Positions 4,086 through 20,787 are shown, counted from the stretch's first letter. The stretch is DNA of 32,000 nt from Candidatus Binatia bacterium (GCA_036009625.1 DASYLJ010000177.1:11501-43500); one strand, 5' to 3'. Translations and numbers: made by a program. Notes: generated by a model not told the origin, from the sequence alone.

Positions 4086-4107
4086 GGGGGGCGGCCTCGC
4101 GCCCCCC
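4086..4107. terminator. GC-rich hairpin between convergent genes (candidate bidirectional terminator)
   Basis: GGGGGGCG (4086-4093) pairs perfectly with CGCCCCCC (4100-4107) around a 6-nt loop, GCCTCG. Outer GCGAG/CTCGC pairing occurs at 4076-4080 and 4114-4118. The hairpin lies between the tautomerase stop (4060) and the TetR stop (4119). There is no U-tract, which is common in high-GC genomes. Confidence 0.5.
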
Positions 4108-4118
4108 GTGCGCCTCGC

Positions 4119-5929: not shown

Positions 5930-6705
5930 GACGCCTCCGATGTGTGGTCGCGCCAGCTGCCCGATGCATAGTGCTCGAGCCCGCCGAACAGCTCGCCGGT
6001 TTCGATCGTGGCCATGCCGTGGCGGTACTCGCCCGCCAGCGCCTCGTCGAGCCCGAGTGACCACTGCTCGTACGACGAGCGTCGATCGCTGCGGAGCGCC
6101 GCCTGCGGCCGGCTCGCGATCTCGCGCGCGAGGGCGATGGCCTCGGGCAAGGCGCGGCCGGGCGGCACGAGCCGGTTGGCGAGCCCCATCCGCTGCGCCT
6201 CCTCGCCCGAGACGCCACGTCCGGTGAGGATCAGATCGAGCGCGTGCGAATGGCCGAGCAGCCGCGGCAGTCGCACGGTGCCGCCGTCCATGAGCGGGAT
6301 GCCCCAGCGCCGGCAGTAGACGCCGAACACGGCGTCGTCGGCCGCGACGCGGAGGTCGCACCAGGCGGCCAGCTCGAGGCCGCCTGCGACCGCATGCCCT
6401 TCGATGGCGGCGATCACCGGCTTGCCGAGCAGCATCCGTGTCGGTCCGACGGGGCCGTCGCCGTCGGCCGCGACGCGGGTGATGGGCGTGCCGTCGCCGC
6501 TGCGCATCGCCTTCAGGTCGGCGCCGCAGCAGAACTTGGCGTTCGCACCGGTCAGGACTGCGACGTGGAGCGCCGGGTCGGCATCGAAGCGACGAAAGGC
6601 ATCGGCCAGCGCCTCGGCGGTGGGGCGATCGATGGCGTTCGCCACCTCGGGTCGGTCGAGCGTGACGACGACGATGGGGCCGGCGGGTTCGTAGTGGACG
6701 GGCAT
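5926..6705 (-). CDS. Enoyl-CoA hydratase/isomerase (crotonase) family protein
   Basis: IVVVTLDRPEVANAI...VLTGANAKFCCGADLK...KPVIAAIEGHAVAGGLELAAWCDLRVAA is the crotonase-fold oxyanion-hole pattern. GAGGAGG SD lies just upstream of ATG 6705. Confidence 0.9.
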   Translation of the reverse strand: MPVHYEPAGPIVVVTLDRPEVANAIDRPTAEALADAFRRFDADPALHVAVLTGANAKFCCGADLKAMRSGDGTPITRVAADGDGPVGPTRMLLGKPVIAAIEGHAVAGGLELAAWCDLRVAADDAVFGVYCRRWGIPLMDGGTVRLPRLLGHSHALDLILTGRGVSGEEAQRMGLANRLVPPGRALPEAIALAREIASRPQAALRSDRRSSYEQWSLGLDEALAGEYRHGMATIETGELFGGLEHYASGSWRDHTSEAS

Positions 6706-6792: not shown

Positions 6793-8103
6793 CTATTCGG
6801 TGGACACCACGCCACACGCTCCGGATGGGCCGACGCGGAGGCTGGCGTGGATCGGCATCGCCGCTCCGAACCCGGTGCGGGGTGTCTTCAGCACCAGCTT
6901 CCGGAGGGCACCTTTCCGGATGGTCGCCCGCGCGATGGTGAAGGCCCCCACGGCGCTCTGTTGGAACTGGCCGCGGCCGACGCGGCGCCATGGCCCGGCG
7001 ATGACCTGGCAGCCGGCCTCCGCCGTCGAAATCACGACGGTGGTTTCGGCCGCGTCGAAGAGCACGCCGGGCGGTGGCCGCGCGACCACCGACAGGCGCA
7101 GGCCGTTGCGCCCATACGTCGCCGTACCGGTGATCGGCTCGGCGAGTGTGCAGCACGCCGGATCGTCCGCGTCGACCAACGCGTTGCCGTCATCGTCGAG
7201 GCAATTGTCGCAGGTTTCGGTGGGGGCCGACGTCGCCATCCCGCAGTTGCACGAACACGACGACGCGGTCGTGCCGTTGTCGGCGCCGTCGTCGCAGAGC
7301 TCGCCGAGATCGGTGTCGAGGAAGCCGTCACCGCAGGCGGCGCCGAGGCACGACTGCCCGGCGTGGATCGGTGCCCCGATGCCGATGATCGGTCCGGTCT
7401 GCTTCGTGAAGCCGAGCACGACGTCGTACTCGGCGCGGCTGCCGGTCGATGCGATCGGGTTCTGGTCGTAGCGCTCCGTGGGGGTGCACGGGAAAAGGCT
7501 GCAGTCGATGTCGGCGCCGCAGGTGCGGACGCCGTCCTCGCACACACCCGCGTCGCACGTCCGGTCGCATGCGAAATCGCCTTCGCACTCGGCGAACAGC
7601 CCCGTCGTTTCGGGGCGCTTGCAGGCGGTTCTCGACGTGGCCAGGCAGCTACCGTCGGCGCAGCCTTCGACGCCGAGCAGGCTGGCTATCTCGGAGGAGT
7701 AGAACTTGTATGCCAGCCACGACCCCTGGGGGAGATGGGTTCGAACGAGCTCGGTCTCGGTGAGGCCGGTGACGCCGTTCTCGCTGGACACGCACAGCTG
7801 CGCCGGTTGGTTGTTGTCATCGCAGGCCGGGTACTGCACCGTGGTTGCGACGTCGTTGCGCGAGCACAGGACGGCCCCTTCGGTGCGCAGGACCCAGCTG
7901 GCGGTGCTGCCGGCTGGACCGCAGGCGTCACCATGATCCGTCACGGTGAACGTGATGCGGGCCGAGCGGTCACCAAAGGTGCCGAAGCTGCGTTCCCCAG
8001 GTGGCGGCCCCCCCGCACGTGCGTTACCGCCGAGGACGACCAAGGCGCAGAGCAGCAAGGTGCCCAGGTGCATACGCCGCTGGAGCGGTTCGATGCCGCG
8101 CAT
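6793..8103 (-). CDS. Secreted cysteine-rich repeat protein (Myxococcus-type CGDG...CDDG repeat and metal-binding-like CxxCxDDD motif)
   Basis: Signal-peptide-like N-terminus MHLGTLLLCALVVLGGNARA; the alternative start is ATG 8073. There are more than 30 Cys residues. CGDGFLDTDLGELCDDGADNG matches the myxobacterial cysteine-rich repeat, and ETCDNCLDDDGNALVDADDPACC resembles the DDD-rich putative metal-binding repeat. High GC3. Confidence 0.7.
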   Translation of the reverse strand: MRGIEPLQRRMHLGTLLLCALVVLGGNARAGGPPPGERSFGTFGDRSARITFTVTDHGDACGPAGSTASWVLRTEGAVLCSRNDVATTVQYPACDDNNQPAQLCVSSENGVTGLTETELVRTHLPQGSWLAYKFYSSEIASLLGVEGCADGSCLATSRTACKRPETTGLFAECEGDFACDRTCDAGVCEDGVRTCGADIDCSLFPCTPTERYDQNPIASTGSRAEYDVVLGFTKQTGPIIGIGAPIHAGQSCLGAACGDGFLDTDLGELCDDGADNGTTASSCSCNCGMATSAPTETCDNCLDDDGNALVDADDPACCTLAEPITGTATYGRNGLRLSVVARPPPGVLFDAAETTVVISTAEAGCQVIAGPWRRVGRGQFQQSAVGAFTIARATIRKGALRKLVLKTPRTGFGAAMPIHASLRVGPSGACGVVSTE

Positions 8104-8155
8104 GTCGGCAATGACTTAGATCGTACGGTAGTGAAGGCACAAGGAAAATCGGGTC

Positions 8156-11100
8156 TCACCGTCGCGGGGCCAGCTCGCAGATACCCTCCCATGGCACGGA
8201 CGGGGGATCGTCGCGCAGCTGGCGGCATCGGTCACAGTAGAGCCGTACGGCAGGATCGTCGGGATAGTCCCGCGCCAGGCGCTCGAATCGCGCAAGGGCC
8301 TCGGCGAAATCACCCGCCAGGTACTCGGCTCGCGCACGCACGAAGTGATCCTCGAGACGGCGTAGTCGTCCGTCGAGATCGTCGCTGACCGTCCCCAGCA
8401 GCTCGTGGACGACCAGCGGCGCTTCGCGGTCGGTGATGCGCACGCGATCCAGCTCCCGAAAGACGAATTCGGAGCCGGCGCTGCGTCGGGTCGCGTCGCT
8501 GACGAGGATCGGAGATCCATGACAACGCAGACGCTGCAGCGTCGCGGCCATGTCGGCAGCGTCGCCGCGGGCCGTGAAATGAACGTCGAGCCCGTCGCCG
8601 AAGTTGCCGACCAGGGCGTGTCCCGATGCGATGGTGACGGGAAGCAGCGGCGCGCTCGCAGGGGCATCGTGGAGGAGGGCGAGTGCACCGCGGCAGGCGG
8701 CCGCGGCGTGGTCCGGACCCACCATGCGGTCGTCCCAGAACGCGGTCAGGCCCAGGCGAGTTCGGAGGTCCACGATGCCGCGGGCCGCGACCAGTGGGCG
8801 CTCCAGGGCATGGCGCGCCTCGTCGTCGAGGACGTCCACGGGGCCGGTCATCAGCACGGATGCGTCGGCATGCACGGGCGCCTTCGTGACGTCGGGAAGG
8901 ATCGTGTTGAACAGCTCGCTCGAGGCATCGATGCCGGTGTCGTCGCGCGCGAGACCGACTGCGGTGGCATCGGCGATGCGCGCCAGATGCGCCAGCTCCT
9001 GCGGGTCGTAGACCTCGCCGGAGCGGCGAACGCCGAGAACGATGAAACCGAGGAAGAGTGGTCCCTGGCGTAGCCCGAGGACGATCTCGCCGTGCAGCCG
9101 GGTGAGGACGTGCCGCTGCGACGGCGGAATGCGCATGGCCGCCAGGGTGCTCCAGCGGACCTGAAGGTCGGCGACGCCTGGAGCATGGTAGAGCACCGAC
9201 AGGATCGGATCGTCGAGCGACAGGGTGGATGGCGGGGCCCGGCGCCCCGGACGCCCCTGGGTGAACGCGGTCCGGAAGGTGGTGCCCTCGCGCACGTAGC
9301 CCGTGCATTCGGAGACTCCGATCAGCGTCATCAGACGCTCGCACGAGAGCCGCAGCACGTCGCGTGCGTCCCGACGCGTGGCGAGATCCGCGAGGAGCTC
9401 GTCGGTGGCCGTCGCGAGTCGCCGGCGTTCCGACCGGAAGAGGCGGTCGACCACGGGCACGATCACCCACGCACGCAGGACGAGGGCTCCGACCAGGAGG
9501 GCGACGGTCATGATGGTCGCGACCAGCCGTCGCAACGCCTCGCTGGCCTCGCCGGGGACGAGCTGCTCCACGGCAGCGCGGGTCACGTCCGGATAGACGA
9601 GCAGGCCGCCGCAGGCCACGACGAACAGCGTCGAGTACAGCATGGTGGTGCCGGCGAGGAGCCGATCGATGTCGAGCAGGTTTGCTCGCGTTACCGCGAC
9701 CAGAATCGACAGCGGAATGAGCGCCTCGCAGAGCATCAGGACGTCGTGGAGCCAGTACCATGCGGACCCTCCGATGCCGGCGACGGCGTTGGCGAGGGCG
9801 ACCGGGAGCAACGCGGCATAGAAGCCGAAGTAGATCCACTTGATCTGCAGGCGTCCGCGGGGATCGGCGTTCCGGTAGTTGCGCGTGATGAGCGCTAGGA
9901 TCGCGACCACGAACACGAGATTGACGACGTACATCCCGACGATGCCGAGCCACGTCGGAAGGGGGCCGCCGAGGACGTAGGTCAACACGAGCGGACCGAA
10001 CACGGCGAAGAGCCACGGCCAGTATTTCGGCGGGGGCGGCGCCGAGGATTCCGGCACCATGGCGATGGGGCGGACCAGAAGCGGAAAGACCAGTGTGGAG
10101 CTGACCGCGAAGACCGTGAGCCACATCCAGCTCATCGCCGGCGTCCCGCCGAAGAACCACAGCCAGTGCAGGGCCAGGAGCAATGCGCCGACGTAGACGG
10201 CCCGAGCGAATGCGGAGTGCGGTCGGCGCAGGAAGACGAACAGGCCGGTGAACACGTAGACGCCGGTCATGACGGGAAGGCGCCATGCGGATGCAACCGG
10301 GACGAAGGGAAGCTCGGTCACGAGTCGCGTGCCGCCGCGATCGATCAGGGCCGGCACGACGCCGGTGGGGGATCGCCAACGCTCGTCCTGTGCCGCGACG
10401 AAGACGTCGATACGACCGGCGCCGGCGAGGTCGGTGGTTCCGACCGACAGCAGGCGGTCGCCCGGCCTCGGCATGGTGTCGCTCGTCGCGGCCGTTCCCG
10501 GCCAGTACGCCTGGACGGTCGGATGGTCGGAAGAATCCGTTGCTGGTGTGACGTACACCCCGACCCATGCCAGGCCATGGTGGAGCATCTGTGCGCTCCA
10601 TGCGCCGACGGCGACGAGCCAGAGCAGGGCCAACGCGAGCATGGCGACCTCGCGCAGACCGAGGTCCCCGGCGCGATCGCGTGCGCCTGCGGTCCAACGA
10701 CGCCACGACGCGTCCTGGGCGGCGATCGGTGGTCGCGCGGGGGGCCATGGTCGATCGGAACGATGCGGATGGTCGCCCGGTGGGGTGGAGGCGGGCCGCT
10801 CGAGCGCGCGATCGAGGAGACGAATGCGGTCGGTGTCGACGGGACGCCGCGGAATGCCCAGCGCCTGCACGCCGGCGCGGATGGCCGGGAGCGTTTGCTC
10901 CAGAGACGCATGGGTCAGCCGGGTCGAGGTCGCGGCCCCCACCATGAATGCCACGTTGGGTGCCCGGCGCTTCAGATCGTCGTGGGTGATGTCGAGCAAC
11001 AGCGGAACGAGCGGCTTGCCGCCTTCCACGGCTGCGAGGAGCTCGCGATCGACCTGCGGCGAATGCAACGACCGTGGAGACAGGATCACCAGCAGGGCCG

Positions 11101-11263
11101 TGGACGCGGCGACCGCCCGTCGAACGCGTTCGACGTAGGAGGGCCCGGTCTCCGTGTCGACCTCGTAGATCCAGGTCGCATGACCGGCCACCTCGAGGTC
11201 GCGCGCGATGATGAGAGCGACGTCGGCATCTTCGGCCACGTGGCTTATGAAGATCGTGCTCAT
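8156..11263 (-). CDS. 1035-aa multidomain membrane protein: N-terminal TIR, PDZ-like loop, about 10 TM segments, GAF-like domain, catalytically degenerate class III cyclase-homology domain, TPR-like tail
   Basis: Domain coordinates are approximate.
- TIR (aa 1-135, nt 10859-11263): IFISHVAEDADVALIIARDLEVAGHATWIY...LLVILSPRSLHSPQVDRELLAA, with the conserved Glu at E74 (codon 11042-11044).
- PDZ-like (aa 235-320): ...PGDRLLSVGTTDL...
- Hydrophobic segments: aa 205-225 and nine more between aa 328 and 605.
- GAF-like (aa 620-775): ends ...GEIVLGLRQGPLFLGFIVLGVRRSGEVYDPQELAHLARIADATAVGL.
- Cyclase-like (aa 795-950, nt 8414-8881): ASVLMTGPVD replaces the xxVLFxDIVGFT metal-binding motif, and ARGDAADMAATLQ replaces GxxVNxAxRxE. 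The metal Asp and the Asn/Arg are therefore lost.
- C-terminal tail: YLAGDFAEALARFERLARDYPDDPAVRLYCDRC is typical of sequence downstream of bacterial cyclase domains. Confidence 0.85.
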   Translation of the reverse strand: MSTIFISHVAEDADVALIIARDLEVAGHATWIYEVDTETGPSYVERVRRAVAASTALLVILSPRSLHSPQVDRELLAAVEGGKPLVPLLLDITHDDLKRRAPNVAFMVGAATSTRLTHASLEQTLPAIRAGVQALGIPRRPVDTDRIRLLDRALERPASTPPGDHPHRSDRPWPPARPPIAAQDASWRRWTAGARDRAGDLGLREVAMLALALLWLVAVGAWSAQMLHHGLAWVGVYVTPATDSSDHPTVQAYWPGTAATSDTMPRPGDRLLSVGTTDLAGAGRIDVFVAAQDERWRSPTGVVPALIDRGGTRLVTELPFVPVASAWRLPVMTGVYVFTGLFVFLRRPHSAFARAVYVGALLLALHWLWFFGGTPAMSWMWLTVFAVSSTLVFPLLVRPIAMVPESSAPPPPKYWPWLFAVFGPLVLTYVLGGPLPTWLGIVGMYVVNLVFVVAILALITRNYRNADPRGRLQIKWIYFGFYAALLPVALANAVAGIGGSAWYWLHDVLMLCEALIPLSILVAVTRANLLDIDRLLAGTTMLYSTLFVVACGGLLVYPDVTRAAVEQLVPGEASEALRRLVATIMTVALLVGALVLRAWVIVPVVDRLFRSERRRLATATDELLADLATRRDARDVLRLSCERLMTLIGVSECTGYVREGTTFRTAFTQGRPGRRAPPSTLSLDDPILSVLYHAPGVADLQVRWSTLAAMRIPPSQRHVLTRLHGEIVLGLRQGPLFLGFIVLGVRRSGEVYDPQELAHLARIADATAVGLARDDTGIDASSELFNTILPDVTKAPVHADASVLMTGPVDVLDDEARHALERPLVAARGIVDLRTRLGLTAFWDDRMVGPDHAAAACRGALALLHDAPASAPLLPVTIASGHALVGNFGDGLDVHFTARGDAADMAATLQRLRCHGSPILVSDATRRSAGSEFVFRELDRVRITDREAPLVVHELLGTVSDDLDGRLRRLEDHFVRARAEYLAGDFAEALARFERLARDYPDDPAVRLYCDRCRQLRDDPPSVPWEGICELAPRR

Positions 11264-11297
11264 GGCGTCGCGCGGCGACGGCTACCACGACGGGTCG

Positions 11298-12755
11298 TCA
11301 CCTCGCCAGGCGCGTCATGCGGATCGTGAGGAGCACGGCGAGCGCGAGTGCTATGGCGAGCGGGGTGTCGCCGGTGCGTTGATAGACGGTGGTTCCGTCG
11401 AGGGGGACGATCATGGCGTTCAGGACGTCGGGTCGACCGAAGCTGCTCGTGCGAGACAGTCGCCCCTGCGGGTCGATGACGGCCGAATACCCCGTGGTGG
11501 CCGCGCGGAGCAGCCATCGCCGCGACTCGATGGCGCGAAACGACGCGATCTCGAGATGGTGGCGTGCCGCCGCCTCGCTTCCGAACCACGAGTCGTTGGA
11601 GAGGTTCAGGAGCAGCTGTGCGCCCCCGGCAACGGTTTCGCGGACCAGCTCGGGATACATGGCCTCGAAGCACAGGAAGATGCCGAGTCGCCCGGCCCTG
11701 GACGTCAGCACGCCTGACTCCACACCGCCGGTATAGTGCGTCGTGCCCGTGGTTTCGGCGAAGGGCACGAGCCGACGCTTGTCGTATCGTCCAGCGAGGT
11801 CACCGTCGCGGACCAGAAAGACCGAGTTGTGATAGACGGTGCCGGCGGTGTCGGTGAATGCGTAATGCGGTGCGCCGAGAACGAGATCGCTTCCGAATCG
11901 GCGCGATCCATCGAGGAGCTCTTCGCGCTCGCGCGAAGCCTCCTGCGGGTAGAAGCTGACGGCATACTCGGGCCAGACGATGAGTGCCGGCGGCGCCGTG
12001 CTGGTGCTCGAGAGCGCCAGATGCTCCGCGAGGCCGACGCGCTGATACTCCGGGAGCCAGTGCAGTCCGCGACCGACGCCGGCCTGCACGACCATCACCG
12101 GCACGTCGGGCGTGGGCGCCGGCCGCGTCAGCTGCCAGCGTCCGTACACGATCGTCGCGACGACGGCGCATCCCACCGCGGCTGTCGACCAGCGCTGGCG
12201 GCGTCCGCGGAGATCCGGAACGAACCTCGATGCCACCAGCGCGTTGACGGCTGCCACCAGCATGCCGCCGGCGTACGGACCGGCGAGATCGGCGGTCTGC
12301 GTCAGGGTGGGCCAGTGTACCAGCGCGTACCCCGAGAGGACCCAGGGGTCGCCGCCGAAGGCGCGGGCACGGACCAGCTCGTATCCTGCCCACGCGAGGG
12401 CCACGCGTCCGGGGGAGGCCACGCCGGCGCGCGCCATCCAACCGACCGCGGCGCCGAAGGCCGCGCAATAGATGCCGGCGTGGGCCATGCCGATGACGGG
12501 TAGGCTGAGCCACCCGATCCACGCGGGTTGCTCGAAGTAGACAGAGATCATGCCTGGGAACCACGTGCCCGTCTCCACGCCGATCGCGGTTCCCCAGAGG
12601 AGGCCGAGCAGGGCGCCCCGCAGGGGGCCGTGGCGGGTGAGAGCGACCAGGAAGGGGATCAACGCGACCCAGATCAGCGGCGTGAACGACCATGGCGGAA
12701 AGCAGGCCGCGTACAACGTGGCGGAGGTCAGGACGAGGAGGGCGGAGACCAGCAC
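11298..12755 (-). CDS. lnt: Apolipoprotein N-acyltransferase
   Basis: Polytopic N-terminal half plus a CN-hydrolase domain with the Glu-Lys-Cys triad contexts IVWPEYAV, YDKRRLVPFAE and LGIFLCFEAMYPE. The Lnt-typical LLLNLSNDSWFG is also present. GTG start at 12755. Confidence 0.9.
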   Translation of the reverse strand: MLVSALLVLTSATLYAACFPPWSFTPLIWVALIPFLVALTRHGPLRGALLGLLWGTAIGVETGTWFPGMISVYFEQPAWIGWLSLPVIGMAHAGIYCAAFGAAVGWMARAGVASPGRVALAWAGYELVRARAFGGDPWVLSGYALVHWPTLTQTADLAGPYAGGMLVAAVNALVASRFVPDLRGRRQRWSTAAVGCAVVATIVYGRWQLTRPAPTPDVPVMVVQAGVGRGLHWLPEYQRVGLAEHLALSSTSTAPPALIVWPEYAVSFYPQEASREREELLDGSRRFGSDLVLGAPHYAFTDTAGTVYHNSVFLVRDGDLAGRYDKRRLVPFAETTGTTHYTGGVESGVLTSRAGRLGIFLCFEAMYPELVRETVAGGAQLLLNLSNDSWFGSEAAARHHLEIASFRAIESRRWLLRAATTGYSAVIDPQGRLSRTSSFGRPDVLNAMIVPLDGTTVYQRTGDTPLAIALALAVLLTIRMTRLAR

Positions 12756-12833
12756 GATGGGCTCCGAGCCAGCTAGTGGGCGATGCGGGTGCCGTCAAAC
12801 GGTTTTGGGATGCGCGGAAACCGACGACCGGCG

Positions 12834-15428
12834 CTACACGATCTTGCGCACCCGGAATCCTGCCCGCTCGACGAGCAATGGAAGGTCCCGGATGGTGTTG
12901 CGATCCCTGACCTTGTCGGGCTCGGTGAGCAGGTCCCAGGGTATCAGGAGCGGGTGATGCTTGCGGGCGTCGTCGCGCTTGGGGGCGAAGGTCCAGCCGC
13001 TTCTTCGACGTTCAGCCATCCAGCGATCGTGCTCGCGCATCGCGAGCATCTCGATGTCGGCGTCGGTGATGATGATCTCCGACGGGCGCATGCCGTGGCT
13101 AGGAGCGAGCTCATACCCGAGGAGACGGAGCTTGTCTGGAATGTCCGCCACGTTGGCGCGGTTCGCATGCCGGAGATCCTCGGTCAGATCCTCCCAGGGG
13201 CGCATCGACCTGTTGGTGAGCGGAGTATCGCCGCGCATCCGGGATTCCGCGCAGTAGCTGTCGTGCTGCGCTCTCGCCAGGTCCTCGAGTGCGAGCACGC
13301 GTTGCGGGACGACGCGGTAGATGCGGTAGCGGCCCGGATAGCCCTTCGCGAGCGGAATCGTGCCCCCGTACTCGCACACGAATCCCTCGTCGCCCGCCGT
13401 GTCGTGACCGATGCCGGCCGACTGCCGCCGGCGCTCGATCTCGGCGCCGAGCTCCGCGAGCGCGGCGAACTCCTCACTCGCGAAGACCTCGCCAGGTCTG
13501 GTCACCGGTTCGATGCGCGCCGCCCGGTTCACGTGCGACCCGGTGAACCCGAGCCGTCGAACGACCGGGTCGTAGTGCATGACGACCGGACCGGCGTGGA
13601 GCCCGGTGCGGATGTTCAAGGGATGCTTCTCCCCATCGAGCTCCCAGTAGAGGCCCAGCGCGAGCCACTCGTCCCGACCTTCCTGCACCAGCTGGGCGAG
13701 CTCCAACGCGAACAGACCAGCGTCACGCGCGAAATCGAACACCGCGTAGATCGCGTCACCCCAGGTGTTGACGCTGCACGGCGCGTGCTTGCTCGTCGCG
13801 ATCAGCTGGGCGACGCGCCCGAGGAAGGCGCCGACGAACTCGGGGACCACCTTTTCGGTGAGCTTGCTGTAGCCGACGATGTCGGCGAACAGCATGCTCT
13901 TCACTTCCTGGTGCATGCTCGATCGCTCGCACCTACGGACCCACGGTTCGTGGGTGCCGACGCTGTCGTGGTCCACCGGCACGGCCGGTGGCTGGACGAT
14001 GATCGGCTGCTCCTGCAGCTGCCCGTGCCAGAACCAGTAGGTGGAATCCGTTCCGCCCGCGCCGCGGCCGGGGAACCCGTTCCAGAAGACCATGGGCTGG
14101 ATGTCGAGCCGTGATGCCCGCGCCGTGTAGAGGGCGATGCCCGCACTGACCTCCACCATGTATTCCCAGCCCACGTCGCTGCTGGGCTCGTAGACCTGAC
14201 CGATTTCGCGGATGGTGGCCGCGCCATCGATCGCGCGCTCGAACAGGGGCTGCCAGACCGGCGGGCCGGGCAGATCGAACGGCTCGATGCTGGTGCGACG
14301 GAACTCCTCCTTCGACCATGGGAGGACGAGGTGGACCGTCCCCCCACGTGCCAGCAGGGCCTCGGCGAACAGGAGATCGGCACCAGCGCACGCGCTCACG
14401 AGACCGACTCTCGCTTGCAGGGTGTCGAGCTGCTTGCGGAGCGACTCACGCGCGCCCTCGATTGATTCCGGTGGAAACCGCACGCGCTCGCCCGGACGAT
14501 CGGGAAGATGGCCGGCGAAGACGATGAGCTGCAGCGGCGGGAATGCGGACTTGAACAGATCGCGCGGCTGGCCGAGCGCCTCGGCCAGGAATTGCGCCCA
14601 GTAGCGCCGCTCGGCGAGCTGCGCCGTGGTGACGTTCTCGATGGTCTGCAGCAGCTCGTAGTGCCTCGTGGCCGCCTGCACGTCGCCGAGCACGGTGAGC
14701 GCGGTGGCGCGCGCCCATGTCGTGTCCAGACTCGGGCCCTCGTCGTCCTCGCGCGCATTCACGCGGGTGACGACGTCCCGCGCCTTGCTCCGCGCCTCGT
14801 CGCGGAGGGCAGATCCTTCCTCGCCGAGGACGAACGCGGCGGCGGCGGTGAGGACGAGGGCGTCGAGCTGCGTTGGGTCGAGTGCCAACGCACGCTGGTA
14901 GAACCCCAGCGCCTGCTCCGCCGTTCGGACGTAGGTGGCCTTCGCCGCCACGTGCTGCGATTCTTCACGGAGGATGTCGCCCAGCTGCAGGAGGATCGCG
15001 AACTGCATGCGCCGGCCCAAGACCGGTCGGGAGCGGGGATCCAGACACGGCTCGATCACGCTCCGTGCGTCTCGCGTCAGGCCGAGTCGCGTGAGGGCGG
15101 ACGCGTAGTCCATCCGGACTCGGACGAGCTCGGTGGGATCGTTCTGATCGGCCGGGTCGAGGCGGAGAATCTCGCGCGCAGCATCCCATACGAGGAGGAA
15201 CTCCTCCTGCGCGAGCGCATGGCGCGTGAACAGCCGCGCGAGCGCGATGTCCTGCTGCAACCAGGCAATCTGCGGCGCGGGTCGTCCCACCCCGTCGGCC
15301 TTCTTGCGCTGATCCGGGTCCGGTACCGGTTGCCGCTGCGCCCAGATCGCGTGCAGATCGCGTACCGAGACTCTGTCCGACCGGAGAAGGCTCTCGACGT
15401 CGCCGACGTGCTCGAAGCTCATGACCAT
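12834..15428 (-). CDS. 864-aa multidomain protein: TPR-like N-terminus, SLOG/DprA-LOG-like Rossmann domain, intact class III nucleotide cyclase domain with non-canonical specificity residues, two C-terminal RyR repeats
   Basis: Domain coordinates are approximate.
- TPR-like helical repeats: aa 55-295.
- SLOG-like (aa 298-470, nt 14019-14537): LIVFAGH...VGLVSACAGADLLFAEALLARGGTVHLVLPW (DprA-like Gly-rich motif) and GFPGRGAGGTDSTYW (LOG-like GGxGT motif).
- Cyclase (aa 505-705, nt 13314-13916): MLFADIVGYS (metal Asp D516, codon 13881-13883), NTWGDAIYAVF (D558), IRTGLHAGPVV, GSHVNRAARIE (N634, R638). Asn554 (codon 13767-13769) sits where adenylyl cyclases have Lys, and Gly627 where they have Asp.
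- RyR repeats (aa 712-860): LARAQHDSYCAE...RPWEDLTEDLRHANRANVADIPDKLRLLGYEL and LAMREHDRWMAERRRSGWTF...HHPLLIPWDLLTEPDKVRDRNTIRDLPLLVERAGFRV. Confidence 0.85.
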   Translation of the reverse strand: MVMSFEHVGDVESLLRSDRVSVRDLHAIWAQRQPVPDPDQRKKADGVGRPAPQIAWLQQDIALARLFTRHALAQEEFLLVWDAAREILRLDPADQNDPTELVRVRMDYASALTRLGLTRDARSVIEPCLDPRSRPVLGRRMQFAILLQLGDILREESQHVAAKATYVRTAEQALGFYQRALALDPTQLDALVLTAAAAFVLGEEGSALRDEARSKARDVVTRVNAREDDEGPSLDTTWARATALTVLGDVQAATRHYELLQTIENVTTAQLAERRYWAQFLAEALGQPRDLFKSAFPPLQLIVFAGHLPDRPGERVRFPPESIEGARESLRKQLDTLQARVGLVSACAGADLLFAEALLARGGTVHLVLPWSKEEFRRTSIEPFDLPGPPVWQPLFERAIDGAATIREIGQVYEPSSDVGWEYMVEVSAGIALYTARASRLDIQPMVFWNGFPGRGAGGTDSTYWFWHGQLQEQPIIVQPPAVPVDHDSVGTHEPWVRRCERSSMHQEVKSMLFADIVGYSKLTEKVVPEFVGAFLGRVAQLIATSKHAPCSVNTWGDAIYAVFDFARDAGLFALELAQLVQEGRDEWLALGLYWELDGEKHPLNIRTGLHAGPVVMHYDPVVRRLGFTGSHVNRAARIEPVTRPGEVFASEEFAALAELGAEIERRRQSAGIGHDTAGDEGFVCEYGGTIPLAKGYPGRYRIYRVVPQRVLALEDLARAQHDSYCAESRMRGDTPLTNRSMRPWEDLTEDLRHANRANVADIPDKLRLLGYELAPSHGMRPSEIIITDADIEMLAMREHDRWMAERRRSGWTFAPKRDDARKHHPLLIPWDLLTEPDKVRDRNTIRDLPLLVERAGFRVRKIV

Positions 15429-15497
15429 CTCGAGGGATAGAATTCTGCCAGAGCCCGTGGAGAAGAGCCAGCCCGAAGATCACTGGCGTGGACCTCC

Positions 15498-18400
15498 TCA
15501 GCCGCGGCGACGCTGGCGTGGACGACCCCGGCGAGGGGTGGCCGCGTGCCGTCGTCCGGGTGTCCTGCCGATGTCCGCCTCGAAGAATCGGAAGAACGGA
15601 TTGCCATAGTGCTGATAGGCGCCCCACGTGCGTACGCCGTAGGCCAGTTTCCCGACGACCCGGCGGGCTTCACGCATGGCCTCGTGCATGGCCTCGGGCG
15701 GCTCGACGTCGGCTGTGTTGGCAGGGGTTCCCTCCACGTCGAGACCGAGGAGGCCACCGTAGAGCCGCCGCGCGAACGCGCGCGCGGCCATGTCGTCGAC
15801 GGGCCACGCCGTGCAGACGAAGTTCGCGACGCCGCGCGCGAAGAACGCCTCGGCGAAGCTCGGCGCGAGGGTGGCGTTCCTCAGCTCGGAGCGATCCGGG
15901 GTGATGCCGGACTCGCACGCATTCGAGAACACGAACTTGGGGATGCGGTCGATACGGTTCAGCTCGCGTGCGCTCAGGGTCTTGCCGCCGGAGAAGATCC
16001 AGCCCGATGCAGGCGGATTCGTCTCGTCGTAGAAGCAGTGGCCCGCGAAGTGCAGCACGTCCCAGGCGCTCCCCATGAGCTCTTCCAGCACACGGGCACG
16101 CGTTGCCTCGCTCGGGCCGAAGAGCCGCACGACCTCGGCGCGGTTCTCGTGCCGACCCTGCGCGGCCGCGTTGAAGCGCTCGAAGAGCTCCGCGACGGCG
16201 ATGCCTTCTTCCTCTGCGCCCGGGAGGTGTGCCTCGGCCGCGGGATCGGCCACGATGAGCACCCGGAGGGTCCGCCGGGGTGGTGGCGGTGGCTCGGGCG
16301 GTGGGGCGAAGGCCGTCCGAAGCTGGCGCGTGAGGCCACCCGCCGTCCCGAAGAATCGATCGAACTCGTCGGTCGCGATCGGCGACGCCGGCAGCGGGGT
16401 TCCAGGAGGCGCATCGAGATCGGGGCGGGTGACGAGCTCCCAGTGAATCGCCGCGGCCTTCGTGTCGAGCAGCATCACCAGTGGAGCATTACCGCGCAAT
16501 CGCTCGCGGAAATCGGCCGGGAACATGAAGCGACCGAGGTTGCCTCCGTGCCACTCCTGCTGCTTGACGTCGGTCACCGTCACTAGCGACTCGTTGATCT
16601 CGCCGACCAGTGTCGAGTCGAGGTCGATCTCGCGCTCTGGGACCGAGGCGGTCTCGGTCAACGCACCATAGCGGTACTTGTCGTGCTCGAACGTCAGGGT
16701 GATGCGTGTGGGCGGCGGGTCCGTTCGCGGGGATGCCTCGGCGCTCCGCCGGGCCTTCTCCTGCTTGCGGTCCCAGGCGATGGCCTGCCGGTTCAGACGT
16801 TTCGTCTGCTCGGGTGTGAGTGGGGCGTAGCGCAGCGTGAACGGCGCGCCGTCGTCGTGGTCGCGCTGCTCGTCCGCCAGCGCGCGATCGATCTCGGCGA
16901 CGCGATGGGGATCGAACTCGACGAACGTGATGCGCTGGAGCCGCCGCCGTGTGTCGCTGCTCGACCCCGTGAGTGCGTACCGGAGACCACGTACCCATGC
17001 CTGCACGGCCGCGCGCACGGGCAGGTTCCCGTTGCCCGAACCGATCAGCACGGTCGCGAGGTGCTGCTTGCCGAGACGCCCGAGGGCCCAGGCGAGCTCG
17101 CGGACGAGGACCACCAACTCGGGACTGCCGAACCGCGCCGGAACACCGAGCCCGGCAACGGCGAGCACGCGTTCCGGGGACCGTCGGCGCCCGACCCGCT
17201 GGCGAGGATCGGGCAGGAGAAACGGCGTACCCAGCTCTCCCCGCAGCACGCCGCGATCCGTGTACTGGGTGAGCAACAGGTCGGCCGTCCCGACGTCCCG
17301 CGACGAGACGGTGGCGCGCCGGCCGGGCAGTACGGCGCTGATGGCGCGATCGAGCGCCAGCTCGGCTGCCTGCGGGCGCACGCCGAGGTAGTGCCCGACG
17401 GCGACGGCATCGACCGGAAGGCGGCGGCCCCCCAGCTCGTGGGCCCCGTCGATGCTTCCGAGCTGGACGTCGACCTGCACCGAAACCATCGTTTGCGGGC
17501 GCGCGGTCATCGAGCCCGGCGCCGGTCGGGCGGAGGACGGGCTGCCGCCCAGGAAACCGCGAACCACGATGTCCTCGCTGAGGCGCTCCTCGGGAGCGAG
17601 GTAGGTGCGCTCGACCTCTCCCACGCGTGAGCGCGCGCGCATCCGACGCGTGAGCTCCGTGAGCTCCTGTTCCTCGTTCGCTGCGCGCTCGTGCAGGGCG
17701 TGCAGGTCCGCCCGTGTCACCCGCCCGCGCGCGCGGCGCGGAATCGTGGTGCCGAGCGAGCTCGTGCGGCCGTCCTTCAAGAGGTCGTCCAGGGCGGTGA
17801 GGACCGCGTCGTTCATGGGGAGACTGCCGTGCTCGGCCTCGACGTAGTACGTCGGGACGTCCCGCCCGTTCGCGGTGCGTAGCAGTCCCAGGTCGTGGGT
17901 TACGCGTCCATCCCCATCACGGGTCCATAGGTAGGCGCCCTCGTCGCGAAACTTCGACGGATCACGGAGGCCTGCCAGGGTGAGCTGATTGCACCCTGCG
18001 ACGTAGATCATGCGGTCGGGATCGACCACGTTCTGGAGTGCGACGTGTTGTCGCGCGGCGGCCTCGAGATGCTCTCGCCAGATGTCGAGCCCATAGGTGG
18101 AGGCATCGTAGAGGGGTTGCATCGACGGCACCGCGATCGGTGACGGCAGCATCTGCAGAAGCCCGGGAAAAGACGCGATGATGCTGCACACGTCCTTCAC
18201 GCCGTGGTGGAGGTCGACCAATGCGAGTTTCCGCACGAGGGGTTCGATGCCCGCGATCACCTGCGGCACGACGAAGGCCCCGTGGTTCGGCGTGCCGAGC
18301 ATCACGAGTCGCCCGCCTGCCATGCGCCGCCACAGCTGGTCGTGGTTCAGGATGAAGGTGCGTGCGACCAGTCCTCCCATCGAGTGGGCGACGAGATGCA

Positions 18401-18926
18401 CCGGTCCGCCGTCGGGGAACCATTCGACGATCTTCGCGGCCAGATCGGCCGCGGCCAGATTCAGATCCTTCCGCCAGTCGTACCAGAAGGCTTGCACTTT
18501 CCACCGTGCGCCGAGGGCGATGAGGATGTCGCCGTAGTAACGCTTGAGCATCCCGACGGCGCGGACGTCCCAGCCTGGCTCGTATCCCGCGCGACCATCG
18601 GGCCTGAGGCGCAGGCGATCGAAGGACCCGGCGATGAGGCGCCAGACCTTGACCCAGATCAGCTCATTGTCGGCCTGACGAGTGGCCGCGAGCTCGCCGC
18701 CCATGATGCCGTGAAGGACGACGACGTTGCCGATGGGCCGGCAGGCGCCGCGAGCACGATTCCGCGCCAGCGTGCGACCGTGAAGGCGCTCGTACCGAGC
18801 GTCGCCGAAGTACTGCCGCAGCGCGCGCTCCTGATCGAGCGACGGTCGGAGCAGCAGCCGGGCGAAGTCGTCTGGATTCGCTGCCTCGACCTCGGCAATG
18901 AACGCACGTTCGTCGAACGACGGCAT
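15498..18926 (-). CDS. 1142-aa multidomain protein: N-terminal alpha/beta-hydrolase (LCAT/PGAP1-like lipase), central macro-like (peptidase M17 N-terminal-like) domain, C-terminal CHAT caspase-like protease
   Basis: Domain coordinates are approximate.
- Lipase (aa 65-375, nt 17802-18734): VVVLHGIMGG, YDWRKD, nucleophile elbow VHLVAHSMGGLVAR (S182, codon 18381-18383), RDGDGRVTHD (Asp) and EAEHGSL (His).
- Central region (aa 485-685, nt 16872-17474): DAVAVGHYLG...RVLAVAGLGVPARFGSPELVVLVRELAWALGRLGKQHLATVLIGSG...AAVQAWVRGLRYAL. By eye it resembles the leucyl-aminopeptidase N-terminal macro-like fold.
- CHAT (aa 745-1110, nt 15597-16694): AAIHWELV, LRVLIVADP, catalytic His in VLHFAGHC (H963, codon 16038-16040) and Cys in FVFSNACESG (C1004, codon 15915-15917). 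Confidence 0.85.
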   Translation of the reverse strand: MPSFDERAFIAEVEAANPDDFARLLLRPSLDQERALRQYFGDARYERLHGRTLARNRARGACRPIGNVVVLHGIMGGELAATRQADNELIWVKVWRLIAGSFDRLRLRPDGRAGYEPGWDVRAVGMLKRYYGDILIALGARWKVQAFWYDWRKDLNLAAADLAAKIVEWFPDGGPVHLVAHSMGGLVARTFILNHDQLWRRMAGGRLVMLGTPNHGAFVVPQVIAGIEPLVRKLALVDLHHGVKDVCSIIASFPGLLQMLPSPIAVPSMQPLYDASTYGLDIWREHLEAAARQHVALQNVVDPDRMIYVAGCNQLTLAGLRDPSKFRDEGAYLWTRDGDGRVTHDLGLLRTANGRDVPTYYVEAEHGSLPMNDAVLTALDDLLKDGRTSSLGTTIPRRARGRVTRADLHALHERAANEEQELTELTRRMRARSRVGEVERTYLAPEERLSEDIVVRGFLGGSPSSARPAPGSMTARPQTMVSVQVDVQLGSIDGAHELGGRRLPVDAVAVGHYLGVRPQAAELALDRAISAVLPGRRATVSSRDVGTADLLLTQYTDRGVLRGELGTPFLLPDPRQRVGRRRSPERVLAVAGLGVPARFGSPELVVLVRELAWALGRLGKQHLATVLIGSGNGNLPVRAAVQAWVRGLRYALTGSSSDTRRRLQRITFVEFDPHRVAEIDRALADEQRDHDDGAPFTLRYAPLTPEQTKRLNRQAIAWDRKQEKARRSAEASPRTDPPPTRITLTFEHDKYRYGALTETASVPEREIDLDSTLVGEINESLVTVTDVKQQEWHGGNLGRFMFPADFRERLRGNAPLVMLLDTKAAAIHWELVTRPDLDAPPGTPLPASPIATDEFDRFFGTAGGLTRQLRTAFAPPPEPPPPPRRTLRVLIVADPAAEAHLPGAEEEGIAVAELFERFNAAAQGRHENRAEVVRLFGPSEATRARVLEELMGSAWDVLHFAGHCFYDETNPPASGWIFSGGKTLSARELNRIDRIPKFVFSNACESGITPDRSELRNATLAPSFAEAFFARGVANFVCTAWPVDDMAARAFARRLYGGLLGLDVEGTPANTADVEPPEAMHEAMREARRVVGKLAYGVRTWGAYQHYGNPFFRFFEADIGRTPGRRHAATPRRGRPRQRRRG

Positions 18927-18932
18927 GCGGCG

Positions 18933-19724
18933 TCAGGCGAAGATCTGCCGGCGGGTCTTGGCCGCTGCACCTTCGAGCTGCGGGGATTGCGGATAGTCCC
19001 TGATCGCGCGGCGGAGACGGCGATGCAGCTCGTCGTAGGTCAGCTGGTACTTCGCGCGCTCGATGGTCTTGAGCGCGTAGTACGTCATGGCGCCGTGCGG
19101 AATGCCGTCGAACTCGGCGTCGTACGAGTACTGACGGTCGTTGCACCCCGAGAGCACCACCTCTTTCATCTTGGCTTCGGGGTAGTCGGGCCGCGTTGGT
19201 CGTGCGGCCCACGGGTTGTCGAGCTCCGGTAGGCCGCGGAGACGCGGGTTCAGGAAGCGCACCCGTCGGTTGTCGGGCGTGGCACGGTCGAGGGCACGGG
19301 TCGCCGTGCCCGAGAAGCAGTTGTCGAGGATCACGGTGAGCCGGACGCCCTTCGGCAGGCCGGCGATCAGCTCGCGGAGCTCGTCGTCGACGATATCGTT
19401 GGCGTCGATGTCGTAGGGGCACAGAACCTCGTCGTACTTCTCTTCGTCGCCGTCCGTGTCCGCCACATAGGAGCCGTGAGATGAATTGGTGAAGACGAGA
19501 ACGTCGCCCGCCGTCGCCCCGGCCAGGAGTGCCTTGAGGGCGCGGAGCGTCGCACGCTTGGTCGCCTGGGCATTGAGGAGAAGCTTCACGTCGCCCTTCG
19601 AGAAGTCGTAGTGGTCGGCCAGCAGTGCCGCCCACGCGCGCGCGTCGTTGACGCATCCGCTCAGGTCGTTGCCCTTGTACGGGTAATCGTTGATCCCGAC
19701 GCAGAGCGCGCGTTTCCTTCCCAT
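18933..19724 (-). CDS. Peptidase C14 caspase/metacaspase-like protease (stand-alone, 263 aa)
   Basis: RALCVGINDY, with catalytic His in VFTNSSHGS (H83, codon 19476-19478) and Cys in VILDNCFSGT (C136, codon 19317-19319). Start ATG 19724 is preferred over 19757 because of the GGGAGGA SD 6 nt upstream. The stop lies only 6 nt before the start of the CHAT gene. Confidence 0.85.
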   Translation of the reverse strand: MGRKRALCVGINDYPYKGNDLSGCVNDARAWAALLADHYDFSKGDVKLLLNAQATKRATLRALKALLAGATAGDVLVFTNSSHGSYVADTDGDEEKYDEVLCPYDIDANDIVDDELRELIAGLPKGVRLTVILDNCFSGTATRALDRATPDNRRVRFLNPRLRGLPELDNPWAARPTRPDYPEAKMKEVVLSGCNDRQYSYDAEFDGIPHGAMTYYALKTIERAKYQLTYDELHRRLRRAIRDYPQSPQLEGAAAKTRRQIFA

Positions 19725-19890
19725 GCGGCGTCCTCCCGGTGCGGCTCGAGCCCGCACTCGGTGAGCAAACGACGTGCCGGCGCGTCCCGTCGGGAATCAC
19801 CCACGGTACCGACGACGGCGTCCCGTACAGTCGACATCGTGTCCGGCGGAGCGGACGACGCCGTGTCACCCACGCGTGTCCGGAGACGAC

Positions 19891-19913
19891 GCGCGGCTGC
19901 CGTGGAGCCGCGC
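19891..19913 (-). terminator. Candidate terminator hairpin downstream of the SDR gene
   Basis: GCGCGGCT (19891-19898) pairs perfectly with AGCCGCGC (19906-19913) around a 7-nt loop. It lies 31 nt downstream of the SDR stop codon (19944-19946, minus strand) and upstream of the caspase gene. No U-tract. Confidence 0.35.
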
Positions 19914-19943
19914 GCGAAGGACGAGGGCTGCCCCGCCCGCCGG

Positions 19944-20714
19944 CTACAGCACCACGGTCATCCCGCCGTCGACGACGATCGCTGCGCCGTGCACGTAGGC
20001 CGCGTCGTCGCTCAGCAGGAACCGCACGACCTTCGCGATGTCCGCCGGCTGCGCGATGCGCCGCAGCGGAATGCGGCCTTCGAGCTGGCGCTTCGCGTCG
20101 GGCATCGCCAGTACCGGGGCCAGCATCGGCGTATCGACGGCGCCCGGGCACACCGCATTGATGCGAATGCCCTCGAGCCCGAGCCGATGCGCCAGCGAGC
20201 GCGTCAGGCCGAGTAGCCCCGCCTTCGACGCGCAGTAGGCCGGGATCATCCCATTGCCGATGATCGCCTCCACCGACGCGATGCCGACGACGGCCGCACC
20301 CGGCATGCCCTCGCGCAGCGTGTCGACGAAGGCGCGCACCAGCATCGCCTCGGCGCGCAGGTTGACGTCGAGCACGGCGTCCCAGGCGTCGTCGGTCATG
20401 AAGTCGATGGGCATCGCGCCCGATACGCCAGCGGCGTGGACGAGACCGCCGATGGGTCCGAGGGCCGCGCGTGCCGCCGTCACCGCCGTGGCGAACCCGT
20501 CCGCCACCCGCACGTCGAGGCCGAGATGATGCGTGGCGACGCCGAACTGCTCGCGGCAGAGCGTCGCCGTCTCTCGGGCGCCGTCGCCGTCGAGGTCCCA
20601 CGCGGCGACGGGACGTCCCGCCTCCGCGAGAGCGAGGCAGGTGGCGCGGCCGATGCCGGAGCCGCCGCCCGTGACGACGACACCGGTGGTGGGATTCGTG
20701 GGGAGCTGAGCCAT
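19944..20714 (-). CDS. Short-chain dehydrogenase/reductase (SDR) family oxidoreductase
   Basis: Cofactor motif VVTGGGSGIGRA, NAAG-like HAAGV, and catalytic YCASKAG (YxxxK). 256 aa is typical of classical SDRs. Confidence 0.9.
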   Translation of the reverse strand: MAQLPTNPTTGVVVTGGGSGIGRATCLALAEAGRPVAAWDLDGDGARETATLCREQFGVATHHLGLDVRVADGFATAVTAARAALGPIGGLVHAAGVSGAMPIDFMTDDAWDAVLDVNLRAEAMLVRAFVDTLREGMPGAAVVGIASVEAIIGNGMIPAYCASKAGLLGLTRSLAHRLGLEGIRINAVCPGAVDTPMLAPVLAMPDAKRQLEGRIPLRRIAQPADIAKVVRFLLSDDAAYVHGAAIVVDGGMTVVL

Positions 20715-20787
20715 GCGTCGAGGCTACGTCGGCCGCGACGGCTGGGGCAACGAACGGCGCGGGCGGTCAGCGGCCGGTTCCGACCGT

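Follow-up and report, generated by a model that had tools for sequence, protein, structure and literature searches.

The DNA considered here is a stretch of 32,000 nucleotides, referred to as the window, from a metagenome-assembled genome (MAG) of Candidatus Binatia (GCA_036009625.1, DASYLJ010000177.1:11501-43500), with a G+C content of 70%. It contains an 11.6-kb block of five open reading frames (ORFs), all on the minus strand, which code for a C14 caspase (18933-19757, or 18933-19724 with the shorter start), a lipase-Macro-CHAT protein (15498-18926), a TPR-S/SLOG/class III nucleotide cyclase/RyR protein (12834-15428), the apolipoprotein N-acyltransferase Lnt (11298-12755) and a membrane sensor with an N-terminal TIR domain (8156-11263). 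The coordinates leave intergenic gaps of 6, 69, 78 and 34 bp, and the five ORFs show the coding signature for 70% G+C, with about 0.7 G+C at first (GC1), about 0.5 at second (GC2) and 0.83-0.85 at third codon positions, so that the gene layout given in a first-pass annotation of the sequence was borne out. The same annotation proposed that the genes form a single nucleotide-signalling conflict or cell-death system, alternatively a developmental module of a Myxococcota-like organism. A Myxococcota origin was rejected, since the source records name Candidatus Binatia. For the block as a whole, a comparison with about 170 related loci indicates that it is probably a lineage-specific juxtaposition of three independently evolving units and not one conserved five-gene system. 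These are designated unit A (caspase and lipase-Macro-CHAT), unit B (the cyclase-RyR protein) and unit C (lnt and the TIR-membrane sensor).

Synteny of the block

For the lipase-CHAT protein, 84 loci were searched over +/-10 kb with all window proteins, both whole and split by domain; 80 of these were loci from species genomes, comprising 1.37 Mb. For the cyclase, the search covered 80 loci from metagenomes (0.78 Mb), representing the wider SLOG+cyclase family. A homologue of the cyclase-RyR protein, Lnt or the TIR-membrane protein was present in 0 of the 84 lipase-CHAT loci, and homologues of the window's CHAT protein, caspase, Lnt or TIR-membrane body were present in 0 of the 80 SLOG-cyclase loci. 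The loci of TIR-membrane relatives contained no CHAT, caspase or SLOG-cyclase gene either. The full five-gene order was found just in the same organism, from three samples. Lack of synteny had been named in the first-pass annotation as refuting its proposal, and for the five genes as a set this is what was found; the domains, the active sites and the conflict flavour of the proposed nucleotide signalling survived the profile and structure tests.

Architecture and partners of the three units

In unit A, the gene at 18933-19757 (minus strand) codes for a small, stand-alone C14 caspase (Peptidase_C14 5e-26) of 263 amino acids (aa) from the ATG at 19724 or 274 aa from the GTG at 19757, and the catalytic residues H83 and C136 (ATG numbering) are present in the translation. 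The second gene (15498-18926, minus strand) codes for a protein of 1142 aa with Pfam matches to LCAT/abhydrolase and CHAT families. Its N-terminal alpha/beta-hydrolase domain is of the LCAT/PGAP1-like lipase type (aa ~60-400, 17727-18749; LCAT-like hydrolase Pfam 1.5e-6) and carries S182 in the motif HSMGG; in an alignment of 25 lipase-CHAT homologues, S182 is nearly invariant, and H181, G184 and G185 are invariant. The CHAT protease domain of the caspase superfamily is located at aa 881-1109 (15600-16286; CHAT 4e-24), with H963 and C1004 invariant in the same 25 homologues. The region between them (aa 470-700, 16827-17519) has no Pfam match. Its AlphaFold2 (AF2) model (pLDDT 89.4, pTM 0.87) was identified as a Macro fold by Foldseek, with matches to the macro domains of macroH2A, YmdB, MacroD2, PARP9/14 and Af1521 at E~1e-6 and TMt 0.64-0.73, and with 324 PDB matches at E<0.001. 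The Macro domain is predicted from this model to be a sensor of an ADP-ribose-type ligand.

The lipase-Macro-CHAT family is conserved over its full length, with more than 1200 proteins at 42-53% identity and 301 matches among species-representative genomes of at least ten phyla. Of 70 loci in which the upstream flank was long enough, 10 have a close orthologue of the caspase (57-68% identity) adjoining the gene, and in 7 of these 10 it is the next gene upstream, co-directional and with a gap of 21-117 bp. The caspase-linked proteins, that of the window among them, group in one clade of a neighbour-joining tree, which covers Binatia, Chloroflexota, Actinomycetota and Acidobacteriota. For other clades, unbiased clustering of the neighbouring ORFs revealed SIR2_2 and nSTAND1-WD40 proteins as partners in 12-13 of 80 loci, and the same partners are present in the loci L001 and L002. 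TIR genes are not enriched beside lipase-Macro-CHAT (1 of 80 loci). In a search of 72,556 plasmids, only relatives of the hydrolase domain were found for this protein, and on plasmids the hydrolase domain is also fused to trypsin-like or CHAT peptidases.

Several single loci of this family show individual features. The position of the lipase-Macro-CHAT gene on the chromosome is constant in Pyrinomonadaceae, with a radical-SAM (Zn_ribbon_HMPTM) gene on one side and lpxD on the other, as seen in L001/L002 (7435-21741) and a JGI 3300067032 contig, and for the lpxD side only in L004; only some of the genomes have SIR2_2 and nSTAND1-WD40 genes inserted behind it. Plasmid p1 of Rhizobium leguminosarum GLR17 (NZ_CP071627.1; locus L179, 6827-12289) codes for a 1028-aa hydrolase-CHAT protein, behind which a SIR2 family protein and then a DNA/RNA non-specific endonuclease are encoded; this hydrolase-CHAT protein is an annotated relative from a cultured organism. 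In a Caldilineaceae locus (L054, 5555-8158, plus strand), an 868-aa Peptidase_C14 + Trypco1 protein is encoded upstream of lipase-Macro-CHAT, representing a distant caspase partner of another architecture.

From its domains, unit A would be a self-contained proteolytic cell-death or defence module. Binding of an ADP-ribose-type ligand to the Macro domain would release the CHAT protease, and possibly the lipase too, and CHAT would then cleave and thereby activate the small C14 caspase, which has no sensor of its own. In the other clades, the SIR2 NADase partner could be the source of the ADP-ribose (ADPR) ligand and nSTAND1-WD40 the sensor.

Unit B consists of a single gene (12834-15428, minus strand) coding for a protein of 864 aa, the family of which is conserved over the full length (50-71% identity, 100% coverage). 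Its N-terminal region (aa ~60-290, 14559-15251) is TPR-S-like; the TPR-S match of the window protein is below the cut-off (E=0.017), and PF20308 TPR-S is listed in the precomputed annotation of several orthologues. The following region (aa 285-500, 13929-14576) gave no sequence-profile match, neither with Pfam on 16 family members nor in a PDB profile search, and was found by fold search alone. Its AF2 model (pLDDT 85) matched DprA, LOG, Moco-carrier and ShosA proteins in Foldseek with a probability of 0.95-1.0, E 2e-4 to 1e-2 and a modest TM of 0.35-0.48, identifying a SLOG fold. The Gly-rich loops AGADLL and PGRGAGGT are located in this domain, and G349/D351 and G458/G459/T460 are invariant in 25 cyclase homologues. 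At the C-terminal end (aa ~715-863, 12840-13286) an RyR region was identified (RyR 1.3e-15), with a clear repeat at aa 792-861; of the two RyR repeats announced initially, the other is weak and scores just E=0.095.

The class III cyclase domain lies between SLOG and RyR (aa 508-667, 13428-13907; Guanylate_cyc 9e-10). Its residues D516, D558, N634 and R638 are intact, and D516, D558 and R638 are invariant in the 25 homologues. In class III cyclases, the base-specifying residue is Lys in adenylate cyclases and Glu in guanylate cyclases. Here, the position is occupied by N554 (codon 13767-13769), and across the family by Asn or Ser in the motif [NS]TWGDA, which makes the product of the cyclase uncertain; judged from this position, the nucleotide substrate may be non-canonical.

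The partner pattern of unit B differs from that of unit A. TIR-domain ORFs were identified in 30 of the 80 SLOG-cyclase loci vs 1 of the 80 lipase-CHAT loci, which served as the control, corresponding to 43.6 vs 0.73 per Mb (about 60-fold, Fisher p=1.3e-9), where the TIR hidden Markov model was built partly from TIRs of the cyclase loci and could under-detect other TIR types in the controls. In most of the TIR-positive loci, the TIR ORF is an immediate neighbour (<500 bp). The TIR partners themselves are diverse, including TIR+DUF4062 followed by nSTAND1-TPR, TIR-TPR, TIR-FGE-sulfatase and others. For the orthologue with 71% identity (L168), a TIR-FGE-sulfatase gene is located directly downstream, and the one with 66% identity (L169) adjoins a dense TIR-rich island at 12635-22433, which comprises nSTAND1, SIR2_2-TIR, TIR-TPR, TPR-S-patatin and pYEATS-TIR genes and a further faint TIR gene. 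For a third orthologue (L170), no TIR neighbour was found. L168 also contains, 4 kb from the cyclase-RyR orthologue, a gene for a 568-aa Sel1 + Peptidase_C14 protein (8106-9812, minus strand), the architecture of which is unlike that of the window caspase. No SLOG-cyclase homologue was identified among the 72,556 plasmids, so that, together with the result for lipase-CHAT, there is no evidence of plasmid carriage for either family.

The pattern suggests that unit B is a signal transducer working with TIR-domain proteins, in keeping with the direct TIR-cyclase fusion of the protein P0376, described below. Its SLOG domain would read an NAD-derived nucleotide made by a TIR protein and gate the intact class III cyclase, by which the signal would be relayed as a cyclic nucleotide. 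Alternatively, the cyclase may act first, before the TIR signal.

In unit C, lnt (11298-12755, minus strand) was identified by the TIGR00546 equivalog model (235 bits vs a cut-off of 132.9); its product contains LNT_N and CN_hydrolase domains in Pfam, and the E/K/C triad motifs are visible in the translation. The gene at 8156-11263 (minus strand) codes for a protein of 1035 aa, which combines a TIR domain, a PDZ-like loop, a polytopic membrane region, a GAF-like domain, a degenerate cyclase domain and a TPR tail. The TIR domain (aa 1-135, 10859-11263; TIR_2 3.7e-17) contains the catalytic E74, and this Glu is conserved in an alignment of the partner TIRs. Hydropathy predicts a periplasmic PDZ-like loop (aa ~229-335) followed by the membrane region (aa ~336-610; together 9434-10579), and a GAF-like domain is placed at aa ~620-780 (8924-9406) by comparison with relatives. 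The first-pass assignment of PDZ-like and GAF-like domains received weak support through these relatives, with PDZ at E=0.007 in P0243 and GAF/GAF_2 matches in the homologous region of P0242 (1.9e-6), P0243 (2.7e-4) and others (~0.009), but Pfam on isolated segments of the window protein detected neither.

The C-terminal part (aa ~800-1010, 8234-8866) contains a degenerate class III cyclase domain, identified by alignment, and a TPR-like tail (TPR_14 1.2e-4). In the alignment (A3), the segment with the first metal-Asp is lost, and GL and D..T stand in place of GD and N..R, while the relatives keep both metal-binding Asp residues and the Asn/Arg pair. A Guanylate_cyc Pfam match is absent from the window protein and from P0245 and P0246, and is present in TIR-less relatives and in P0376. 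The latter is a soluble protein of 419 aa, in which a TIR domain (36% identical to that of the window) is directly fused to a Pfam-significant class III cyclase and the same C-terminal tail, without the membrane/GAF insert.

An exhaustive phmmer search of 1.84 billion representatives recovered the whole architecture of the TIR-membrane protein in just two further clusters at 50% identity, which come from a single MAG; a word-indexed homologue search had returned almost nothing. In addition, about 190 proteins match only the loop-transmembrane (TM)-GAF body (aa 205-775), and these are mostly sensor cyclases of ~790 aa. In 5 of 6 sensor loci (the window, P0245, P0246, P0247 and P0243), an lnt gene is found beside the sensor gene or separated from it by one gene, in several orientations, so that both TIR-membrane paralogues, the nearest TIR-less relative and one more distant relative are lnt-linked; the kinase-output relative has no lnt in either position. 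Because of this recurrence, lnt is regarded as a conserved partner of the sensor, and the initial treatment of lnt as an odd or random passenger was rejected.

At the loci of the two TIR-membrane paralogues, further genes were observed. Beside P0245 (L171), an MscS-type channel with a cNMP_binding domain (4560-6065) is encoded convergently, adjoining the paralogue, and in L172 a Crp-type regulator (3539-4225) is encoded two genes upstream. These neighbours suggest that the loci are still tied to cyclic-nucleotide signalling despite the dead cyclase domain. L171 also contains an ORF with an N-terminal RyR domain (5.5e-31) followed by TPR-S (7e-20) at 9919-10746 (plus strand), cut off by the contig end, 5.4 kb from P0245. 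Besides the window, it is the second, independent case of a RyR/TPR-S protein encoded near a TIR-membrane gene. Unit C is best read as an lnt-linked membrane sensor, the usual cyclase output of which has decayed, with an N-terminal TIR domain in its place.

The analysis establishes which domains are present, which active sites are intact or dead, and the patterns of conservation of the three units. Among the domains assigned by the first-pass annotation, TIR (TIR_2), Lnt (LNT_N+CN_hydrolase), cyclase and RyR (Guanylate_cyc+RyR), lipase and CHAT (LCAT-like+CHAT) and C14 (Peptidase_C14) were recovered in Pfam, the SLOG-like and macro-like folds were confirmed by structure (pLDDT 85 and 89) and the dead cyclase domain by alignment. 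The catalytic residues that it named as intact are all found at their positions in the translations, the key ones being invariant or nearly so in the alignments of 25 sequences.

The tight run of minus-strand genes exceeds the five genes of the block. Upstream, an M3 peptidase gene and a gene of the short-chain dehydrogenase/reductase (SDR) family are part of it; downstream, a secreted Cys-rich ORF (52-bp gap), an enoyl-CoA hydratase gene (87 bp) and a Rieske oxygenase gene follow. Since the spacing reaches into flanking metabolic genes, spacing and strand argue only weakly for an operon. Neither mobile-element nor known defence genes were found in the metabolic flanks among the window genes scanned. 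The G+C content at third codon positions (GC3) is 0.83-0.86 throughout 6793-19796, including lnt and the Cys-rich ORF, vs 0.86-0.92 for the flanking metabolic genes; the uniformly lower value would fit a block that was acquired later as a whole or is expressed at a lower level.

The Cys-rich ORF (6793-8103, minus strand, 436 aa), located 52 bp downstream of the TIR-membrane gene, codes for a protein with a signal-peptide-like N-terminus and many Cys residues. It has no Pfam match and at most a weak match to an acidic double-disulfide repeat, and a homologue was present in none of the CHAT or cyclase family loci searched. In L172, a 122-aa fragment with 32% identity to it (18739-19065) was identified at a distance of about 9.6 kb from the TIR-membrane paralogue. 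Its membership in the block is uncertain; it may belong with unit C.

Between the SDR and caspase genes, a GC-rich hairpin is seen in the centroid fold (19891-19913, minus strand), which had been proposed to separate the block from the SDR gene. Its presence was confirmed, but there is no evidence of a function: folding of the intergenic region is not better than that of shuffled sequences (z=0.41), a U-tract is absent, and the terminator scan did not call it; promoter and terminator scans of the window gave no signal at 70% G+C. An AT-skew dip (-0.37) at 30001-31000 was rejected as a special feature, as it coincides with an ordinary, repeat-free TauE/SafE sulfite-exporter membrane gene (30103-31173, plus strand).

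Relation to known systems

For the block, PADLOC returned weak single-domain matches only (PycC 8.6e-6, BovA 1e-4, caspase 2e-11, TIRs 1e-6 or weaker), and NCBIfam has no model for its three large proteins. The earlier statement that no described system covers this gene set therefore stands. Membership in the Borvo, Pycsar, gasdermin and type III CRISPR systems was rejected, as their defining features are absent.

For type III-B CRISPR, it was shown that SAVED-CHAT processes PCaspase (10.1101/2024.10.24.620036). Unit A resembles this pair in that a ligand-sensor-CHAT fusion is encoded beside a small caspase-like protease, the window caspase being located 6 bp upstream and H963/C1004 being invariant. 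By analogy, CHAT would process the caspase, which would then cleave many targets. However, the sensor in the window is a Macro fold, an N-terminal lipase-type alpha/beta-hydrolase is added, SIR2 and nSTAND1-WD40 are the partners in other lipase-Macro-CHAT clades, and there is no family membership on the sequence level. Among the window genes scanned, neither a SAVED match nor a cas-type annotation nor a cyclic oligoadenylate (cOA) synthase was identified, and no gasdermin family match either, in agreement with the initial report of no Cas or gasdermin-like gene. The reported absence of a STAND NTPase is true for the window; elsewhere, however, both large families adjoin nSTAND1 NTPases.

In Thoeris systems, SLOG reads TIR-made cyclic ADPR (cADPR) isomers in ThsA, and Macro senses His-ADPR in type II; type I contains SIR2-SLOG, type II Macro-TM and type IV caspase-like effectors (10.64898/2025.12.03.692087). 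Likewise, the window contains a TIR domain with a catalytic Glu (E74) near proteins with a SLOG or Macro sensor. In contrast to Thoeris, the window SLOG is fused to a class III cyclase and RyR, which constitutes a signal-relay output with no known toxic domain, the TIR belongs to a membrane sensor of 1035 aa, and lnt is located between the TIR and SLOG genes. The adjacency of TIR genes holds for SLOG-cyclase loci (30/80) and not for Macro-CHAT (1/80), and the loci of TIR-membrane relatives are without a SLOG-cyclase. Neither a class III cyclase nor an RyR effector is listed for the 29 putative Thoeris types in those parts of the survey text and supplements covered here (10.64898/2025.12.03.692087).

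With Pycsar, the block shares a class III-fold cyclase near a TIR/membrane protein and a base-specifying Asn in place of Lys/Glu, and the PADLOC match to PycC (E=8.6e-6) is weak and covers the catalytic core only. The window cyclase has TPR-S, SLOG and RyR, which PycC does not, and the TIR-membrane protein is without a CAP-type domain for binding cyclic nucleotides (cNMPs), as judged by the absence of a cNMP_binding Pfam match. For Borvo, BovA is a large CHAT-domain protein, often alone in the genome, and defence is thought to occur via its CHAT protease domain. However, the match to the BovA profile (E=1e-4, 19 bits) covers positions 525-641 of 711 (117 residues) only, and BovA is not described with a lipase, Macro or caspase partner.

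The conflict systems described by Kaur et al. 2020 (PMC7159879) share nSTAND1, TPR-S, pYEATS, a caspase-superfamily peptidase, cNMP cyclases, TIR and inactive cyclase domains with the units and their relatives. Caspase-superfamily peptidases in these systems are always paired with an alpha/beta-hydrolase gene (PMC7159879), a rule echoed by the fused hydrolase of the window CHAT protein. In contrast, the window contains no vWA-MoxR, VMAP, iSTAND or GAP1 core, and RyR, lipase, a fused hydrolase-Macro-CHAT or a TPR-S-SLOG-cyclase-RyR protein are not mentioned in that text. The TIR-membrane body (aa ~205-960) has the same order as membrane sensor class III adenylate cyclases with GAF, namely periplasmic loop, TM, GAF and cyclase. 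It differs from them by the destroyed cyclase site and the added N-terminal TIR, a combination limited to three 50%-identity clusters including that of the window. The SLOG superfamily was reportedly defined by Burroughs et al. 2015 (NAR). A literature search revealed no paper combining RyR with SLOG in bacteria, with the limit that it did not cover Burroughs et al. 2015, where a SLOG-cyclase could be mentioned. Taken together, the block would work most like Thoeris for unit B with unit C and like a CHAT-to-caspase cascade for unit A, with new sensor/output combinations.

One circuit or three units

The ligands, the order in which the components act and a role in defence against phages are all inferred. 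The reading of the block as three juxtaposed units has to be weighed against one integrated circuit of five genes, or six with the Cys-rich ORF, in which a cyclic nucleotide is read by the GAF-like domain, the TIR signal is read by SLOG for feedback and by Macro for execution, and lipase, CHAT and caspase kill the cell. Such a circuit has attractions, since each producer has a matching predicted sensor: TIR E74 and the cyclase are intact, the SLOG and Macro folds are confirmed, and the GAF-like region is supported in relatives. The genes are on one strand with gaps of 6-78 bp, the lower GC3 is uniform over 6793-19796, the arrangement is stable across the three samples, and the TIR enrichment beside SLOG-cyclases makes the B-C half plausible. 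Against this, no other genome among the ~170 loci joins unit A with B or C, TIR genes beside lipase-Macro-CHAT show no enrichment (1/80), and the tight spacing on the same strand runs on into flanking metabolic genes. In addition, lnt, a housekeeping-type enzyme in the middle of the block, belongs with the sensor. On balance, an integrated circuit is quite unlikely. In its most explicit form, membrane (envelope) or TPR-S input would trigger the cyclase, the cyclic nucleotide would activate the TIR-membrane protein via its GAF-like or dead-cyclase domains, and the TIR product would feed back on the cyclase via SLOG and, via Macro, fire the lipase-CHAT-to-caspase cascade. That such an NAD+/cNMP double-messenger circuit joins all three units in this organism is, if anything, slightly more doubtful still.

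A mostly physiological role is also unlikely. Here, lnt and the sensor would monitor envelope or lipoprotein status, the SLOG-cyclase would be an ordinary cAMP/cGMP enzyme, and caspase and CHAT would serve developmental or stress proteolysis. This would agree with the sensor body being that of membrane sensor cyclases, a common family accompanying lnt, with the genes for a cNMP-binding channel and a Crp-type regulator near the TIR-membrane paralogues, with the fixed slot of lipase-Macro-CHAT beside lpx genes in Pyrinomonadaceae, and with metabolic window flanks in which mobile-element or known defence genes were not found. However, both large families recur with the conflict hallmarks nSTAND1 NTPases, SIR2, multiple TIRs, patatin and pYEATS, their patchy spread across phyla with clade-wise swapping of partners is typical of defence modules, and housekeeping functions are rare for CHAT, caspase and a TIR in which the Glu is intact. 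The assumption of chance neighbours only, in which the genes of any adjacent pair have no functional link and are found together because they reside in the same variable parts of genomes, would account for the solo occurrence of most family members and for the widely varying partner architectures. It is hardly compatible with the ~60-fold TIR enrichment at immediate adjacency, the caspase-CHAT pair co-inherited as a cross-phylum clade with gaps of 21-117 bp and the adjacency of lnt to the sensor in 5/6 loci, and is considered very improbable.

Several points weigh against the reading as three separate units, which is nevertheless preferred. The domain set fits a single circuit unusually well, comprising a TIR producer, SLOG and Macro as ADPR-type sensors, a cyclase producer and a GAF cNMP sensor; together with the tight packing and the uniformly lower GC3, this makes co-acquisition or co-function in this lineage possible. 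Sampling of the neighbourhoods was incomplete, with 80 loci per family and many of them on short contigs, and the possible under-detection of TIRs in the control loci, mentioned above, has to be added. About two thirds of the SLOG-cyclase genes and most lipase-Macro-CHAT genes are without a partner within 10 kb, from which it follows that the partnerships are facultative. The RyR+TPR-S ORF in L171 hints that B-like and C genes are linked more often than the small sample shows.

Within the preferred reading of three units, the connections between them are not equally supported. The TIR of unit C is the only TIR near unit B in this genome, so that B and C may be functionally coupled; a functional link, in which the TIR signal is read by SLOG, is plausible from the family-level association and the domain logic, if somewhat short of an even chance. 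For a link of B or C to A, domain logic is the only support. A narrower proposal at the family level, in which SLOG-cyclase-RyR proteins would form a new class of Thoeris-type partner and turn the ADPR signal of a TIR protein into a cyclic nucleotide, is tentative, and more likely than the full circuit.

The two large families, lipase-Macro-CHAT and TPR-S/SLOG/cyclase/RyR, are without a curated model or a paper found, as judged by the lack of an NCBIfam match and the weak PADLOC matches, and both have a clear, testable partner logic. As a lesson of method, tight co-directional packing of defence-flavoured domains can represent juxtaposed separate modules. The occurrence of lipase-Macro-CHAT with a caspase, or with SIR2 and a STAND NTPase, suggests a second, CRISPR-independent CHAT-to-caspase route with ADP-ribose-type gating. 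Should SLOG indeed read the TIR product, a bacterial immune-type messenger would for the first time be seen to be passed on as a cyclic-nucleotide messenger, and specialists would find the link of SLOG-cyclase-RyR to TIR surprising, provided that the relay takes place as proposed. RyR would then also stand beside cADPR-type signalling in bacteria, with a bearing on the long-debated connection of cADPR and RyR in animals.

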